Source of the DNA: a virus
Lineage: Duplodnaviria; Caudoviricetes
Length of the DNA stretch: 64,000 bases
Reading direction: 5' to 3' (one strand)
IMG/VR virus record: IMGVR_UViG_3300028805_000048
The notes beneath the pieces are model-generated. The model searched no databases. It saw only the letters and a list, made by a program, of their open reading frames with translations, and was not told the origin of the DNA. Positions 47,845 to 60,405 of the stretch are shown in pieces. Each line of letters opens with the position of its first letter. Positions within the stretch are counted from its first letter, which is position 1. The translations under genes and the position numbers were made by a program.

Positions 47845-49104
47845 TTATTTTTCAGAATTATTTATTTTCTTATATAACCTACCAATTTTCCATTCATCTC
47901 CGTCTGGAATAGTATATTTAAGTACAGATATTTTACCATTATTAAACCAGTGTTTACCTTTAGCGGCTTTTGACAATTTATTTCTGTATTCAGCAGTACT
48001 TGTAGCCTCTGTTCTTTTTTTATTCCATTCTTTTTTATTTAGCTCATTTGAAAGAAATTTACGTAAACCATCTTTTAGTTTTTGTTTTTCCTCTTTTTTT
48101 GTCATTCTTTCTTTCATTGAATTACTTATTTTTTCTCTATGCTCAGGATTTTTCCATGTTTCTTTTCTACATTTAGATATTTTTTCTCTATATTCTTCGT
48201 TTTTCCATAACTCTTTGGCATTTTTAGATCTTTTTTGTTTTAATTCTTCAGATATTTCATGTGGAATATATGCATCTATTCCTTGTATTCTTAATGTTAA
48301 ATTGTATCCATTTGGTGATAAAGTATTATATTTTTGTATATAAAATATTTCTTTTTCACTTAATTCTTTTTGTGAGCTAGCGTAATCTAATATTTCTCTT
48401 TTTAATATTGAAGTTCCATATTTTTTAACAATGTTTAAAATTAATTTTCCAGAACCATAATAATTATCATTTAATTTATAGCCACGATGCTGCCCGACAT
48501 ATTGTTTATTATGTAATATATCTGTAATTAAATAAATGTATCCAAATTTTCCATTTCCATTCCATATATATGTTCCTTGTCCTTTTTCATCTATTTTATA
48601 ATTCCAACCTTCACGTAACATTATTTTTTCATTATCAGTTCCCTTACCGTCGGTAGTTCCTATTAATTTATCTGGACCAAATTGACGAAGAAGATTATCT
48701 GTTATAAATTTATTATTTTTATACCAGATTTTACTACCTTTTGATACACGTAATAATTTAAAATTTAATTTATCATAAACATCGCCAGTAAAATAATTAT
48801 AATCACAGTATGAAATTATTGAACATGGCTTATAGTTATTTACAAAATAATTAAACATTTTCATTGCTCCTCCGATTATCCTATAATCTGGATGAAAACA
48901 CAACCTCAATAATTCCCATTGATATGTTTTATTATAGCGTGGATATCCAAAAGTCATTACTGCAATTAAAATTGAATTATATATCAAGCCTATATGATAT
49001 ATAGCTGTTACATTTTTTTGCCTATGATATTTATTTAAAAATTCAGATGTATCTTTTTCTGTTAATTCATTAATGATGCACTTTCTAGCGCCTATCTTAA
49101 TCAT
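47845..49104 (-). mobile_element. GIY-YIG homing endonuclease with N-terminal Mom/GNAT-like domain
   Basis: GYIY...YVGQ...YYGSG nuclease; N-terminal FLNKYH...VMTFG.PR...WELLR...IISYCD...GDVY; basic helical tail ending GKHWFNNG. Confidence 0.8.
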
Positions 49105-56100: not shown

Positions 56101-57060
56101 ATGGAACAGCAAACACAATCTACTTTTGATGAAGATTTTAATTTGACAGAACAAAAAAAATTTCTTAGTCTATTAATTTATGATCCACAATGGGCATTAC
56201 TTAATGGATTAGAAGTAATACGTCCAGAGTATTTTGATAGTAATTATCTAAAAAATATATGTAAATGGATTAAACAATATGCGAAAAAATATAAAAATAT
56301 ACCAACAAAGTTAGTATTACAACAAAAAGCACAAACATTGATAAATGATAATCAATTATCTACAAAGGAATATTATAGATATCAAGAAATTTTAGATGAG
56401 ATTTTTACATTAGAACAATCTGATGAACTTGAATATTTTAAAGAAAAGGCTATAGAATTTGCAAGAACAGCAACTTGGAAAGCAGCTTTATTTGATGCTA
56501 CGAATACACTAAAAATACATAATTATGAAGAAGCTCTTGCTAAATTTAGAGAAGTTTTAGATCTAGGTTCAGAAAAAGATCTTGGAACAGATTTTAAAGA
56601 GCAAACACCTGATGAATTTTTAAAATTGTTAAATGAAAAATACGATAAAGCGAATATGATTCAGACAGGTATAGAAGGCTGGGATAAAGCTTTAGGAGGT
56701 GGATTTGCTAGAAATAATATACATATCATCGCAGCGTGTTTTTTAGGAAAAACAAAAATAAAAACAAATAAAGGAAAATTGAGTTTTGAAGAATTATCTA
56801 AATATACGAATTATGATGATTTAGAAATATATAGTTTTGATGGATCAAATAAAATTAAAACAAAAATAAAAAATGTTTTTGAAACAAAAAAAGTTAAAAA
56901 ATTAATGTATTTAAAATTTAATAATGGAAAATCTTTACAATGTACACCAGACCATTTATTTGTAATTAAAAATCCAACAAAAAACGATCCTTATATAATA
57001 TATGAAAATGGAATAGCTTATAAGCAGGCTCAATATTTAGGAGAAAATGATGAATTCTGA
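56101..57060 (+). CDS. Replicative helicase (gp41/DnaB) N-part fused to intein N-fragment
   Basis: IQTGIEGWDKALGGG...IHIIAA followed by intein block A CFLGKTKI and block B CTPDHLF. Confidence 0.9.
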   Translation: MEQQTQSTFDEDFNLTEQKKFLSLLIYDPQWALLNGLEVIRPEYFDSNYLKNICKWIKQYAKKYKNIPTKLVLQQKAQTLINDNQLSTKEYYRYQEILDEIFTLEQSDELEYFKEKAIEFARTATWKAALFDATNTLKIHNYEEALAKFREVLDLGSEKDLGTDFKEQTPDEFLKLLNEKYDKANMIQTGIEGWDKALGGGFARNNIHIIAACFLGKTKIKTNKGKLSFEELSKYTNYDDLEIYSFDGSNKIKTKIKNVFETKKVKKLMYLKFNNGKSLQCTPDHLFVIKNPTKNDPYIIYENGIAYKQAQYLGENDEF

Positions 57061-58123
57061 TACTTTTTGCGGTTATGTATACAAGATAACGAATATACTA
57101 AATAATAAGAGTTATGTCGGACAAAAATTCTCTCCTGTATTTATAGATAAATATTGGGGTAGTGGAGTTTATATTAGAAAAGCTATTAAAAAGTATGGTT
57201 TAGAAAATTTTAAACGTGAAATTTTATGTTGGTGCAAAACAAGAGATGAATTAGATGATCGAGAATTATATTATATAAAACAATATAATACCCTTTCACC
57301 AAATGGGTACAATTTAACATTAAATGTCTTTAAGTCTGGTAGAAAACAGAAACATTCTACTATAACAAAAATGAAAATGAGTCAAACACGATTAAACTAT
57401 TCAGACGAAAAGAAAAAAGAGATTTTAGATAAGTTTCATATGACATGTGAAAATAGAACTGAAGAAGAAAAATTAATTATACATAACAATAGAAGTAAAG
57501 CCATAAGATTTTCAGAAAAATTTCAAAATACTGTACATTCTGAAGAATATAAAGAAAAACAAAGACAAAAATCGATTGTTGTTATGCAGAATCCAGAAAT
57601 TAGAAATAAATTATCTATTACCTCAAAGGAAAATTGGAAAAATGAAGATTATAGAAATATGTGTATAAAAAATTTAAAACATAATGATTCAGAAATACAA
57701 AGTAAGAGGAGTATAAAAGGCAATATTATTAGAAAAACAAATGGATTTGATCAATATAATAAATCAGAAAGAGCTAAAGAGATAAGTAAAAGGAACGCCG
57801 AATATATGAGAGAATTGAAAAATAATATGTCTGAAGAAGAGAAGTATATATGTAGTTTAAAAAGTAAAATTAAAGTTTTATTAAGAAATGAAAAGCTTAA
57901 TAAAGAAGAAATAATGACTTTATTTGAAATCATAAAGAATCATGAACCAACTTATGATTTATATGATTCACCGAAAGACAGACTTTTAAACAAAAAATTT
58001 CCAAAAATAAAATTAGTTAAAAAAGAAATTATAGAACTCGATAAAGAAATACCTGTCTATGATTTAACTGTTGATGGAAATATACCTAATTTTCAATTAG
58101 ATGCTCAAGTTTTTGTACATAAC
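56737..58123 (+). mobile_element. Split intein (IntN 56737-57057; IntC ending 58123) carrying a GIY-YIG endonuclease
   Basis: Cys1 at 56737; block F/G VYDLTV...FVHN then Cys+1; splicing restores the Walker A AACPGGGKS. Confidence 0.88.
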
Positions 58124-58915
58124 TGTCCAGGAGGGGGCAAATCAAGAATTATGGCTTTTCTTACAAAACAAGCTGTTATGGCTGGAAAGCGTGTAATTTT
58201 TATATCGTGTGAACTTGATGAAACTGAGACCATGGCAAATATAAATTCTTCTATTACTGGTTTAAGTATGTATGATATATTAAAACCTGAAAATAGAGAA
58301 GAATTTATCAAAAGAATAACAAATTTTAAAAATACTTTCGGTGGTAATTTGAAAATCAAATTTTATGGACCAAAAACGGTTAATTGTGATACTATTCATA
58401 ATTACATACGAAAAGTCATGCAAGAAGAAAAAGAAAAATTGAATGGAATAGAATGGAAACCTGATTTTATTGTTGTTGATTATATGGATAATTTATTGCC
58501 GATACAGAAAATGAAAGGTAGTTTATATGAAGACGGTGGTGCTGTTGCTAACGATTTAAAAAATTTAGCAATAAGTTTTGATTGTCCGATTGTTACTGGT
58601 TCACAGCTTGGTAAATTTTCTTGGAATATAAAAGAAGGCGATGTGATAAGTATGGATTCTATTGCTGAATCTGCTGCAAAAGTACATCTTGCCCATTCAA
58701 TGACAACAGTAAATTCAAATCCTGGTGAAAAAGCGTTAGGAAGAGCTCGTTTATTTTTAGCTAAATCACGTTCAGGTAGTGCAAATTCTGTTGTTTGGGT
58801 AGAAAATGATTTACCAAGATGTCGTTTACGAGAAATAGATGAATGGAGTCCAAAAGATGTAGAAAATGAGTTTGGCGCGTTTAGTGTTAAATCAAGTAAC
58901 AATAATCGTAAATAA
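57047..58915 (+). CDS. GIY-YIG endonuclease - intein C-fragment - helicase C-part
   Basis: GYVY...YVGQ...YWGSG; HN|CPGGGKS; ISCEL, VVDYMD, TGSQ, LAKSR DnaB-family motifs; AGGAG SD at 57039. Confidence 0.9.
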   Translation: MMNSDTFCGYVYKITNILNNKSYVGQKFSPVFIDKYWGSGVYIRKAIKKYGLENFKREILCWCKTRDELDDRELYYIKQYNTLSPNGYNLTLNVFKSGRKQKHSTITKMKMSQTRLNYSDEKKKEILDKFHMTCENRTEEEKLIIHNNRSKAIRFSEKFQNTVHSEEYKEKQRQKSIVVMQNPEIRNKLSITSKENWKNEDYRNMCIKNLKHNDSEIQSKRSIKGNIIRKTNGFDQYNKSERAKEISKRNAEYMRELKNNMSEEEKYICSLKSKIKVLLRNEKLNKEEIMTLFEIIKNHEPTYDLYDSPKDRLLNKKFPKIKLVKKEIIELDKEIPVYDLTVDGNIPNFQLDAQVFVHNCPGGGKSRIMAFLTKQAVMAGKRVIFISCELDETETMANINSSITGLSMYDILKPENREEFIKRITNFKNTFGGNLKIKFYGPKTVNCDTIHNYIRKVMQEEKEKLNGIEWKPDFIVVDYMDNLLPIQKMKGSLYEDGGAVANDLKNLAISFDCPIVTGSQLGKFSWNIKEGDVISMDSIAESAAKVHLAHSMTTVNSNPGEKALGRARLFLAKSRSGSANSVVWVENDLPRCRLREIDEWSPKDVENEFGAFSVKSSNNNRK

Positions 58916-58940
58916 AAACGGGAGTAATAATTTTACTCCC
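58914..58940 (-). terminator. Intrinsic terminator oriented on the - strand
   Basis: GGGAGTAA/TTACTCCC stem; the U-tract exists only on the - strand. Confidence 0.7.
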
Positions 58941-59107: not shown

Positions 59108-59299
59108 ATGATTAATTTATATGAAAAATCTTACAAAGACTTAGAAGATGATTATGAATCTCAGCAATTAAACGAATTCTATAATCAAGAAGACAATAAA
59201 GAGAAAAAAGAAAGATTAAAAAAGATGCGTGATGATTATTATTTAAAACAATCTGTTTTAAAAATGAAAATGAAGGAGAAAATTGTATGCAATTTGTAG
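59108..59299 (+). CDS. Hypothetical protein
   Basis: SD AAGG; coupled to guaC. Confidence 0.55.
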   Translation: MINLYEKSYKDLEDDYESQQLNEFYNQEDNKEKKERLKKMRDDYYLKQSVLKMKMKEKIVCNL

Positions 59300-60405
59300 G
59301 TGATACGCAACTAGATTATAGTGATGTTTTAATTTTACCTCAAACAACAACTATCAATCATAGAGGTGAAGTAGAAGTAGAAAGACATTTTAAGCAACTT
59401 GAACCAGATTTAGGTATGGGATATATTCGTGAATTCAAATGTTGCCCTGTCATGAATGCTAATATGACACAAACTGGTACTTTTGAAATGGCTAGTCAGT
59501 TGCGTTTACATCATATGATAGCTTGTATTCATAAGTTTTATACAGCGGAAGAAATTAACAATTATTTTGAAAATAATGGTTGGGAAGGAGTTACATTTTT
59601 CATTACAATTGGTTTACGCAATCAAGCAGAAGAAATTCAAAAATTAAGAGATTGTAAGAATCACATGTGGTCTATTTTAATCGATGTACCTAATGCTTAT
59701 ATTCCAGATGTAGAAGAGTTTGTTAAATTTGTTCGTTTAGAATTTCCAGATAGAATCATAGCGGTTGGTAACGTATGTACAGGTGATCGTACTCAAGAGC
59801 TTATTAAAGCTGGTGCAAACATTGTAAAAGTTGGAATTGGTCCATCTCAGGTTTGTCGCACGCGTCATACTACTGGTTGTGGTCGTCCTCAATTGTCTGC
59901 TGTTATTGAATGTGCTAATGCTGCTCATCAAGTAGGTGGATTAATCATTGCCGACGGTGGATTTAATAATACTGGTGATTTGTGTAAAGCGTTTGTTGCT
60001 GGAGCTGACATTTGTATGTCAGGTTGTATGTTTGCTGGATGTGATGAAGCAGCTGGTGAAATAATTAATAAAATGTATAGAACAAATGAATATACTTATG
60101 ATAATGAACCAGAAGATGAGTCTAATTATGTTAATCCAGATAGACCAATATATGAAATGAAAAAATTTAAAGAATATTATGGCATGTCATCTTTTCGTGC
60201 TCAAAAAGAAAATTATGGTAAAAAAACAACTACTGGAACTTCAGAAGGTGTTGAAAGCAAATTAATTCCATATACAGGACCTGTTATTGATACTATTAAT
60301 AATATAAAAGGTGGATTACGTAGTTGTGGAAGTTATATTGGTGCTAAAAACATAAAAAGTTTTAGTAGACAAGGTAGTTTTTATAGAGTAAATAGAGTGC
60401 AATAA
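59287..60405 (+). CDS. guaC: GMP reductase
   Basis: LDYSDVLILP, ANM, GNV, VKVGIGPSQVCRTR, IIADGG, YYGMSS, SEG, GGLRSCGSYIGA; no CBS domains. Confidence 0.88.
   Translation: MQFVGDTQLDYSDVLILPQTTTINHRGEVEVERHFKQLEPDLGMGYIREFKCCPVMNANMTQTGTFEMASQLRLHHMIACIHKFYTAEEINNYFENNGWEGVTFFITIGLRNQAEEIQKLRDCKNHMWSILIDVPNAYIPDVEEFVKFVRLEFPDRIIAVGNVCTGDRTQELIKAGANIVKVGIGPSQVCRTRHTTGCGRPQLSAVIECANAAHQVGGLIIADGGFNNTGDLCKAFVAGADICMSGCMFAGCDEAAGEIINKMYRTNEYTYDNEPEDESNYVNPDRPIYEMKKFKEYYGMSSFRAQKENYGKKTTTGTSEGVESKLIPYTGPVIDTINNIKGGLRSCGSYIGAKNIKSFSRQGSFYRVNRVQ

Follow-up and report, generated by a model that had tools for sequence, protein, structure and literature searches.

[quoted passage not shown]

Why should a phage helicase gene be broken in two, with a nuclease reading straight into its second half? 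The 64,000-nt stretch of viral DNA analysed here (the window) poses this question in two overlapping open reading frames. ORF1 (56101..57060, plus strand, 319 aa) encodes the first 212 aa of a helicase followed by a 107-aa N-terminal intein half (IntN), and ends in ...YKQAQYLGENDEF before a TGA stop. ORF2 (57047..58915, plus strand, 622 aa) lies in the +1 frame relative to ORF1, overlaps it by 14 nt, and encodes in order a GIY-YIG nuclease, a helical region, a C-terminal intein half (IntC) of about 39 aa and the 263-aa C-terminal part of the helicase, such that on one strand the endonuclease coding region sits between those of IntN and IntC. The translation start region of ORF2 (57039..57052, plus strand), with AGGAG at 57039-57043 and ATG codons at 57047 and 57050, falls within the last IntN codons. 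The initial annotation, made from the letters alone, had described this overlap, frame and start region, and a GIY-YIG nuclease sharing one frame with IntC and the C-extein; the first are present as claimed, and the domain matches of ORF2 agree with the second. It had also read the nuclease as an N-terminal passenger of some 310 aa on IntC, of which the fusion stands, while the size is corrected to about 320 aa, with IntC at about aa 321-359.

An identical copy of the ORF2 protein occurs on 4 contigs, with the two-ORF layout also there in the one place shown, and the split is kept in diverged relatives. These two observations together confirm that the two-ORF split helicase with its nuclease-IntC fusion is real, and neither a chance feature nor an assembly error.

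What kind of protein has been interrupted? The N-extein (56101..56736, plus strand; helicase residues 1-212) comprises an N-terminal domain and the beta-strand ...NNIHIIAA that precedes the P-loop, and in profile searches its aa 12-212 match phrog_19, a DnaB-like helicase family. The C-extein (58124..58915, plus strand; 263 aa plus stop) opens with Cys+1 and the PGGGKS of Walker A and continues into a RecA-like helicase motor, with DnaB_C covering ORF2 aa 348-582 and phrog_19 aa 361-607. The N-terminal helicase domain, the DnaB_C RecA-like domain and the Walker A GKS/T that define a DnaB/gp41-type SF4 helicase are all present. Walker A becomes complete only once the two halves are ligated, as had been claimed at the outset: an intein-less homologue, P0007, reads exactly the predicted ligated sequence across the splice junction (predicted peptide IHIIAACPGGGK), and many intein-less alleles read ...IIAA[C/A/P/S/K]PGGGKS there. 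The predicted spliced product of 212 + 263 = 475 aa compares with 469-479 aa in intein-less homologues. The helicase of another phage, L007, is 100% identical to the N-extein over aa 1-213 and 99% identical to the C-extein, and reads IIAACPGGGK. Removing the element restores a conserved, colinear host protein that matches the P0007 and L007 exteins around the P-loop. We also considered a co-conversion tract, nucleotide identity to L007 being 96-98% in the exteins and about 91-93% in the flanks, a gap too small to interpret.

The element itself is best read, from its sequence, as a split intein of class 1 occupying the known P-loop insertion site of DnaB, and both the splicing residues and the insertion position agree with the initial proposal that a split intein interrupts Walker A. 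IntN (56737..57060, plus strand; stop at 57058-57060) begins with Cys213 of ORF1 (56737-56739), the block A nucleophile and intein Cys1, directly after ...NNIHIIAA, and ends in an acidic tail, GENDEF; 5 lineages all keep its C1, T70 and H73, CTPDH being the TxxH of block B. IntC (58007..58123, plus strand; ..IPVYDLTVDG..FVHN) carries PVYD (the block F VYD), NFQ and VHN, likewise invariant in 5 lineages, and leads at 58118-58126 through HN/C into PGGGKS (the slash marks the splice site); at +1 stands Cys, replaced by Ser in L003 (VHN/S). The Pfam Intein_splicing profile is matched over its positions 9-74 by IntN and 114-155 by the ORF2 frame immediately before the C-extein, both matches lying below the gathering score. 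The intein is conserved to the same degree as the exteins. This would make a candidate new split-intein pair of 107 aa and about 39 aa, with Cys1 and Cys or Ser at +1. Its IntC naturally bears a 320-aa N-terminal cargo, a feature of practical interest for tools that ligate proteins.

Nuclease and IntC are joined in frame by a connector (57944..58006, plus strand; ORF2 aa 300-320, ..PTYDLYDSPKDRLLNKKFP..) in which Y, D, D, S, D, R, L, N and K do not vary across 5 lineages. In a model of the complex, connector aa 304-318 contact IntN and residues of IntC form an interface with it. The predicted complex of IntN with the IntC-bearing piece scored an ipSAE of 0.94 against 0.00 for the best control, which may reflect likeness to solved split inteins; three runs agreed on at least 90% of contacts, with a partner pLDDT of 81-83. 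The ipSAE mark was reached by 58/80 solved complexes and 2/110 mismatched pairs, and because split inteins have solved structures, passing it here speaks for likeness and is no proof of binding.

The nuclease looks intact, judging from its conserved residues and predicted fold. Its catalytic domain (57071..57322, plus strand; ORF2 aa 9-92) gives a full-profile Pfam GIY-YIG match at aa 8-89 and also matches SegE_GIY-YIG; the homing endonuclease family phrog_314 covers aa 9-289, and aa 11-260 match Bacillus phage homing endonucleases by tblastn. Every residue invariant in 115 free-standing homologues is retained (Y12, Y23, G25, E73, Y88 and N89, and the seg-type Y36 and GSG38-40); the alignment does not allow the counterpart of I-TevI Arg27 to be assigned. 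An AF2 model has a pLDDT of 91-97 over aa 11-90, and Foldseek pairs it with the I-TevI catalytic domain (1mk0, E 5e-5, TM 0.71; 1ln0 also matched). The basic region that follows (57359..57943, plus strand; ORF2 aa 105-299), which lies largely within the phrog_314 match, is modelled as helices at aa 105-208 and 241-299. Searched alone against Pfam and PHROG it matched no family, no NUMOD or HTH and no known DNA-binding family, and we presume it to be the DNA-binding part of the nuclease.

Is the arrangement peculiar to one phage? Relatives from other samples are 45-65% identical in ORF2, and three of them (L003, L005 and L006; 52-57% identical) are full-length fusions with an uninterrupted ORF2 of 617-618 aa. 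In this locus, L003, L005, L006, L008 and L016, ORF1 stops after (D/E/K)D(E/I/V)F at the same IntN residue, consistent with the canonical IntN end point that had been claimed; the split falls at the loop that receives the endonuclease in inteins. Across these 6 lineages the frame offset between the two ORFs is 0, +1 or +2 and the overlap at the IntN stop is 14, 11, 1, 1, 1 and 0 nt; all relatives have GGAG or GAGGA and an ATG at that stop. In L006 both ORFs share one frame and are separated by just a TAA. L016 has lost most of the nuclease by in-frame deletions, retaining the nuclease start and the frame, and is still fused. In L008 a frameshift splits the nuclease to give a classical three-ORF layout (seen on a single contig), whose IntC-bearing ORF has a new ATG with GGAGGA upstream, about 132 aa before the splice site. 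A stop between nuclease and IntC is absent from the other five, the three-ORF form being found only in L008; if that single contig is correct, its sequence would show the fusion to be dispensable. L007, the phage with 99% identical exteins, has a LAGLIDADG intein five codons downstream (GGGK/...HN/S) that looks class-3-like (W..C..T, without Cys1), an assignment made by eye only. The element looks mobile, since alleles with the split intein occur in scattered positions on the C-extein tree, where well-supported branches force at least 3 changes. At one site, then, the relatives cover the main stages of the homing cycle: they are empty, carry a full, an in-frame-deleted or a frameshifted nuclease, or have a competing intein five codons away, so that the gain, decay and competition of selfish elements can be tested within one gene.

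Wider searches returned few comparable loci. The 157-kb record holds no further copies of the intein, Megablast matched the locus to none of the cultured phage records, and tblastn found helicase or nuclease matches only separately, none covering at least 80% of ORF2. An exhaustive comparison of ORF2 aa 1-359 with 1.84 billion representatives gave one 50%-identity cluster spanning nuclease and IntC; the remaining matches were free-standing nucleases, plus one terminase fusion (P0064). Pattern scans for linker plus IntC (IMG/VR and JGI metagenomes) and for IntN (IMG/VR) gave no further loci, which, with two short degenerate patterns each, is weak evidence of rarity. As for signals, no terminator was found between ORF1 and ORF2, and a sigma-70-type promoter scan gave fewer sites than in shuffled sequence. 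Upstream of ORF2 there is no T4-late TATAAATA, no GTTCTA motif and no conserved RBS-sequestering hairpin.

We consider it likely, on sequence and structure prediction, that a split intein interrupts the Walker A loop, with the nuclease translated as one chain with IntC and set free when the halves trans-splice. The host is a DnaB/gp41-type replicative helicase gene of an uncultured AT-rich phage, its Walker A loop broken by a naturally split class-1 intein. ORF2 is probably translationally coupled to ORF1, since its Shine-Dalgarno sequence and ATG lie inside the last IntN codons. IntN and IntC would associate as a Hint fold and trans-splice to give a 475-aa helicase with IIAA-CPGGGKS, leaving as by-product a two-chain complex of IntN bound to nuclease-IntC, in topology equivalent to an intein with an internal nuclease and a nick between IntN and that nuclease. 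The released nuclease presumably cuts empty alleles of co-infecting phages, leading to homing of the whole element. Such an element may have originated when a free-standing seg-like GIY-YIG gene entered a mini-intein and its 3' end came into frame with IntC. We infer that splicing occurs, that the fusion protein is the actual splicing species, that the nuclease is active and that ORF2 starts as annotated.

Homing endonucleases are normally held at low levels. A nuclease made 1:1 with a helicase subunit is unusual among them, a point against this reading, and it raises the regulatory question of how a phage tolerates a stoichiometric DNA nuclease alongside its replicative helicase.

The fusion could instead be incidental, if functional IntC-C-extein arises from an internal ORF2 start, such as a conserved Met about 99-106 aa before the splice site, and the full-length product is minor or non-functional, in the mode of classical fractured genes. 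Met codons at ORF2 aa 254 and 261 are indeed conserved in all four full-length lineages, L008 exists, and may work, with a separate IntC-bearing ORF beginning about 132 aa before its splice site, and IntC starts inside the 3' end of the nuclease gene in fractured genes (Dassa et al. 2009, PMC2677866). However, no conserved Shine-Dalgarno sequence precedes the Met254 or Met261 codon, the L016 deletions took both codons and yet left the nuclease start and reading frame in place, and an uninterrupted frame of 617-622 aa persists in four lineages that are 52-57% identical. The initial annotation had named an internal start before IntC as a threat to its reading; the relatives show no such conserved, Shine-Dalgarno-bearing start, and we regard this alternative as unlikely.

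It had named a continuous frame in relatives as another, and here a contiguous, cis-splicing GIY-YIG intein would result if the ORFs were joined by ribosomal frameshifting or stop read-through, or if the split were a sequencing error. The short, A/T-rich overlap at this locus and the lone TAA between same-frame ORFs in L006 lend themselves to such an account. None of the 6 lineages has one continuous frame, however, and no longer protein having this IntN was found in a helicase. Because frame offsets (0, +1, +2) and overlap sequences differ among six lineages that stop at the same residue, no single conserved recoding signal is possible; each ORF2 opens with an ATG of its own, preceded by an SD-like GGAG or GAGGA, and the identical ORF2 protein on 4 contigs, with the same two-ORF layout in the one place shown, speaks against sequencing error. 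We find recoding or error scarcely credible. Nearly as improbable, in our judgement, is a decaying relic, in which the nuclease is an inactive leader on IntC, or splicing has ceased and the intein halves hold the two helicase pieces together non-covalently as a working enzyme. Nuclease decay does occur in the family (in-frame deletion in L016, frameshift in L008), and the fragmented NrdA of phage Aeh1 functions without splicing (cited in Dassa et al. 2009, PMC2677866). But this locus keeps every family-invariant nuclease residue, with a confidently predicted GIY-YIG fold; the splicing residues are all invariant and the intein is conserved like the exteins; and without splicing, strand beta-1 and the P-loop would be kept apart by a large insert.

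If co-translation and trans-splicing are the right reading, is the fusion a selected strategy or a frozen accident? Translation of the essential helicase C-half begins at the nuclease start codon, so nonsense and frameshift mutations in the nuclease would be counter-selected. In PI-SceI, the Hint domain helps DNA recognition. We tentatively speculate, while thinking it somewhat doubtful, that the fusion is selected: loss of the nuclease by frameshift or nonsense mutation would be lethal, one nuclease would be made per helicase subunit, IntN/nuclease-IntC would act as a composite homing enzyme with the reassembled Hint aiding DNA recognition, and both junctions would flip freely between fused and split. 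If so, this locus and the terminase forms described next, which are fused on the other side, would be living intermediates by which inteins gain new nuclease classes.

The split-intein family of this locus is also found in phage large terminases, where IntN carries the insert and IntC is free. The IntN of this locus is 47% identical to that of terminase P0209 (L010); L010 has a free-standing IntC that shares 41% identity with the one here and starts at the position equivalent to ORF2 aa 321. In terminase L009 a GIY-YIG domain, 47% identical to the one here, is fused to IntN. Like the helicase locus, terminases L009/P0064, L010/P0209 and L012/P0208 have the insert in frame with only one intein half; they differ in that it lies on the IntN side, that IntC-C-extein is a separate ORF overlapping the 3' end of the insert in the +1 frame, and that the break falls just before Walker B CDE rather than in a helicase P-loop. 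The L010 insert matched no Pfam or PHROGs family; we rejected its homology to the nuclease of this locus, the two having only a short YNKSEK motif in common, which is not significant.

Among described systems, the closest are the fractured genes of Dassa, London, Stoddard, Schueler-Furman & Pietrokovski 2009 (PMC2677866), in which gp41, NrdA/J, IMPDH, DnaE, ligase and terminase genes are broken by a split intein with an intervening GIY-YIG or Vsr-like endonuclease gene. This locus has in common with them a gp41/DnaB-type helicase host, the order N-extein-IntN, nuclease, IntC-C-extein on one strand, a GIY-YIG nuclease related to free-standing phage nucleases, and the canonical split point. The differences lie at both junctions. 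In the fractured genes, 27-51 nt of non-coding DNA containing a hairpin and a T4-late-type promoter precede the nuclease gene; here the start of the nuclease overlaps or directly follows the IntN stop, which leaves no spacer, and there is no such motif or hairpin. At the other junction, their free-standing nuclease overlaps the IntC gene at its 3' end by 6-69 bp in another frame, whereas here it is in frame with IntC and no stop intervenes. The insertion site also differs, being the P-loop here and position 356 of P-SSM2 gp41 for gp41-1 to gp41-7. Dassa et al. noted that GIY-YIG was not known inside inteins and predicted in-frame capture as step IIIa of their model, and such capture is predicted as well in a later treatment of intein evolution (Gosselin et al. 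2025 preprint). We found no published description of a nuclease-IntC fusion; in the searchable literature GIY-YIG appears only free-standing between intein halves, whereas here it is in frame with one half, in a natural and conserved arrangement.

Two other known systems are comparable. The contiguous inteins of DnaB insertion point b (Novikova et al. 2016, PMC4760082) occupy the same P-loop hot spot of the replicative helicase, and in them, as here, the nuclease lies topologically between the N- and C-terminal splicing regions; they are single polypeptides with LAGLIDADG or HNH nucleases, while here the chain is broken between IntN and a GIY-YIG nuclease. The L007 allele is an instance of such a contiguous nuclease-containing intein at this hot spot. 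The AceL NrdHF split intein (PMC7891396) is, like this locus, a metagenomic phage-like fractured gene with GIY-YIG between the halves, and differs in having a free-standing nuclease, belonging to class 3 and sitting in an RNR beta subunit. Going by its gene layout, the locus is best read as a variant on the fractured-gene theme of Dassa et al. 2009, half-way between known layouts. The initial suggestion of an intermediate between contiguous and fractured inteins fits their step IIIa, the terminase fusions on the opposite intein half and the three-ORF form of L008.

The helicase gene of this phage is divided between two overlapping reading frames, with the C-terminal half of a split intein fused in frame behind a GIY-YIG homing endonuclease, and this arrangement is genuine, conserved across relatives and a new variation on the fractured-gene, split-intein layout. 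The source record is a 157-kb IMG/VR virus of ~29% GC with a completeness estimate of 66%. ORF1 (56101..57060; 319 aa) encodes the N part of a DnaB-like helicase, followed from Cys213 by a 107-aa N-intein (IntN) that closes with GENDEF before a TGA. ORF2 (57047..58915; 622 aa) lies in the +1 frame relative to ORF1 and starts 14 nt ahead of its stop, with AGGAG upstream. Pfam and PHROGs searches matched the N part of Intein_splicing in ORF1 and, in ORF2, GIY-YIG (aa 8-89), phrog_314 homing endonuclease (aa 9-289) and DnaB_C (aa 348-582); the C-terminal stretch of that intein profile (IntC) falls in the ORF2 frame immediately upstream of Cys360. All elements of the two-ORF locus described in the initial annotation are present in the window, including the nuclease passenger on IntC, whose size, given there as ~310 aa, is the sole correction, to ~320 aa. 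Directly downstream, a GC-rich hairpin (GGGAGTAA...TTACTCCC; 58920-58940) adjoins the ORF2 stop; because only the minus strand carries a T-run, it scores as a minus-strand terminator.

Could the split be an artefact? Reads or relatives with one continuous frame had been named as what would overturn it. The identical ORF2 protein occurs on four contigs; the one locus inspected among them stems from a separate run and repeats the layout (319 aa plus 621 aa). The element also recurs in five further lineages from other samples (L003/L004, L005, L006, L008 and L016), with 45-65% amino acid identity in ORF2. In every one of them IntN stops at the same position, (D/E/K)D(E/I/V)F plus a stop codon, which the nuclease ATG either overlaps or directly adjoins. 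What varies is the frame offset: the window and L005 have +1, L003 and L008 have +2, and L006 has 0, with a TAA alone between its ORFs. A common IntN end with frame offsets that differ among lineages rules out both an indel error and a conserved recoding signal joining the ORFs as explanations of the layout.

The splice junction can be read against close relatives. Homology to L007, a phage with flanks of 93% and 91% nucleotide identity, breaks at 56739 and resumes at 58139, and its exteins (IIAACPGGGK) are 99-100% identical to those of the window. Intein-less homologues read IIAA[C/A/P/S/K]PGGGKS, one of them (P0007) matching the predicted ligated sequence of the window exactly, and the predicted spliced helicase has 212 + 263 = 475 aa versus 469-479 aa in intein-less proteins. 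This position is equivalent to insertion point b of DnaB, a P-loop site already recognised as a hot spot for inteins (PMC4760082). Comparison of window 56737-58138 with L007:2991-5489 (protein P0005; phage ~92% identical in nucleotides) shows that L007 lacks the split intein. In its place, 5 codons further downstream, is a contiguous LAGLIDADG intein (GGGK|EVSINT...VTHN|S) with no Cys1 and a W..C..T pattern that, on visual inspection, looks class-3-like, so that one P-loop has two inteins competing for it.

In a C-extein tree, alleles with the split intein are interspersed with empty ones; well-supported branches force three or more changes, and the window pairs with L007, despite its different intein, and next with the empty P0007. 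This topology suggests that the split intein was gained and lost rather than singly inherited. The nuclease family also occurs elsewhere in the phage genome: a 419-aa ORF (window 47845-49104, minus strand) is a second, differently fused copy, its C-half a GIY-YIG paralogue 51% identical to ORF2 aa 4-94 and its N-half giving a weak Mom-like match (PF25680, E 0.0027, below cut-off). In L003 (6947-8756), a free-standing 219-aa GIY-YIG gene follows the IMPDH/GMP-reductase-like gene that lies downstream of the helicase, overlapping the 3' end of that IMPDH-like gene; the window homologue of the IMPDH-like gene (59287-60405) has no adjoining GIY-YIG gene.

Both the intein and the nuclease appear intact, and trans-splicing and nuclease activity are inferred. 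Invariant residues include Cys1, TxxH, block F VYD and the HN with its +1 Cys, replaced by Ser in L003; conservation of the intein parts equals that of the exteins. Complex prediction for IntN with ORF2 aa 230-367 gave an ipSAE of 0.94 versus 0.00 for the best control, which indicates likeness rather than binding because split inteins already have solved structures; of 80 solved complexes 58 attain the ipSAE mark, as do 2 of 110 mismatched pairs. Separate runs shared at least 90% of their contacts (partner pLDDT 81-83), and the predicted interface comprises ORF2 aa 320-358 and a conserved connector (aa 304-318). IntC by itself is disordered in the AF2 model, as would be expected of a split-intein half. 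The same method predicts a confident GIY-YIG domain matching I-TevI, followed by helices, and the intein-linked nuclease copies retain every residue that does not vary among 115 free-standing homologues.

Is the fusion polypeptide itself used? An internal start yielding a separate short IntC would make the fusion incidental. No such start bearing a ribosome-binding sequence is conserved upstream of IntC among the relatives; conserved Met residues do lie ~99 and ~106 aa before the splice site. In L016, deletions that preserve the frame have removed most of the nuclease, linking aa 9-33 to 204-228 and these in turn to ~316, whereas the nuclease's initiation codon, its TAATG overlap with the end of IntN and an open frame through to IntC all persist, as expected if the C-half is translated from the nuclease's start. 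The counter-example is L008, a single contig with the classical three-ORF fractured layout: a frameshift cuts the nuclease to 224 aa, and a new ATG after GGAGGA opens a 395-aa IntC-bearing ORF with a 19-nt overlap. Beyond the layout and its evolutionary series, both of which are read directly from the sequences, we infer that the fusion is used in the window, with translation of the two halves probably coupled.

Related split inteins occur in T4-like large terminases. IntN relatives with 47% identity belong to P0209 (L010:3001-6427, on a 229-kb contig, and also L011) and P0208 (L012:3001-6937, on a 37-kb contig), members of the window's split-intein family in which IntN continues without a frame change into a 325-aa insert of no assigned family. 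Their IntC, 41% identical to ORF2 aa 321-360 and with its Met aligned to residue 321, is a separate +1-frame ORF overlapping the insert's 3' end. In P0208 a deletion bounded by two SEK motifs has taken out most of the insert, and Walker A holds an additional HNH intein. A third terminase, P0064 (L009:3001-7318), has two inteins, a LAGLIDADG one in Walker A (GLGK|MNPL...VTHN|T) and a split one ahead of Walker B (|CDE), whose weakly similar IntN (25% identity) is in frame with a GIY-YIG/NUMOD3 nuclease, its GIY-YIG domain 47% identical to the window's, and whose IntC opens a separate overlapping ORF. Helicase (insert-IntC) and terminase (IntN-insert) cases together show that half-fusions of both kinds exist, with the insert joined to one intein half or to the other.

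Fractured genes were defined by Dassa et al. 2009 (PMC2677866), among them gp41 loci that combine free-standing GIY-YIG or Vsr-like genes, a 27-51-nt spacer bearing a hairpin and late promoter, and an overlap of 6-69 bp with an IntC gene in another frame. That study stated that GIY-YIG was not known inside inteins and proposed in-frame capture as a possible step. No account of a GIY-YIG nuclease joined to IntC emerged from full-text literature searches, and the list of non-canonical intein nucleases in the Gosselin et al. 2025 preprint is without this form. Whereas fractured genes have a free-standing nuclease and an out-of-frame IntC, and the AceL NrdHF intein likewise a free-standing GIY-YIG, in the window the GIY-YIG nuclease is fused in frame to IntC.
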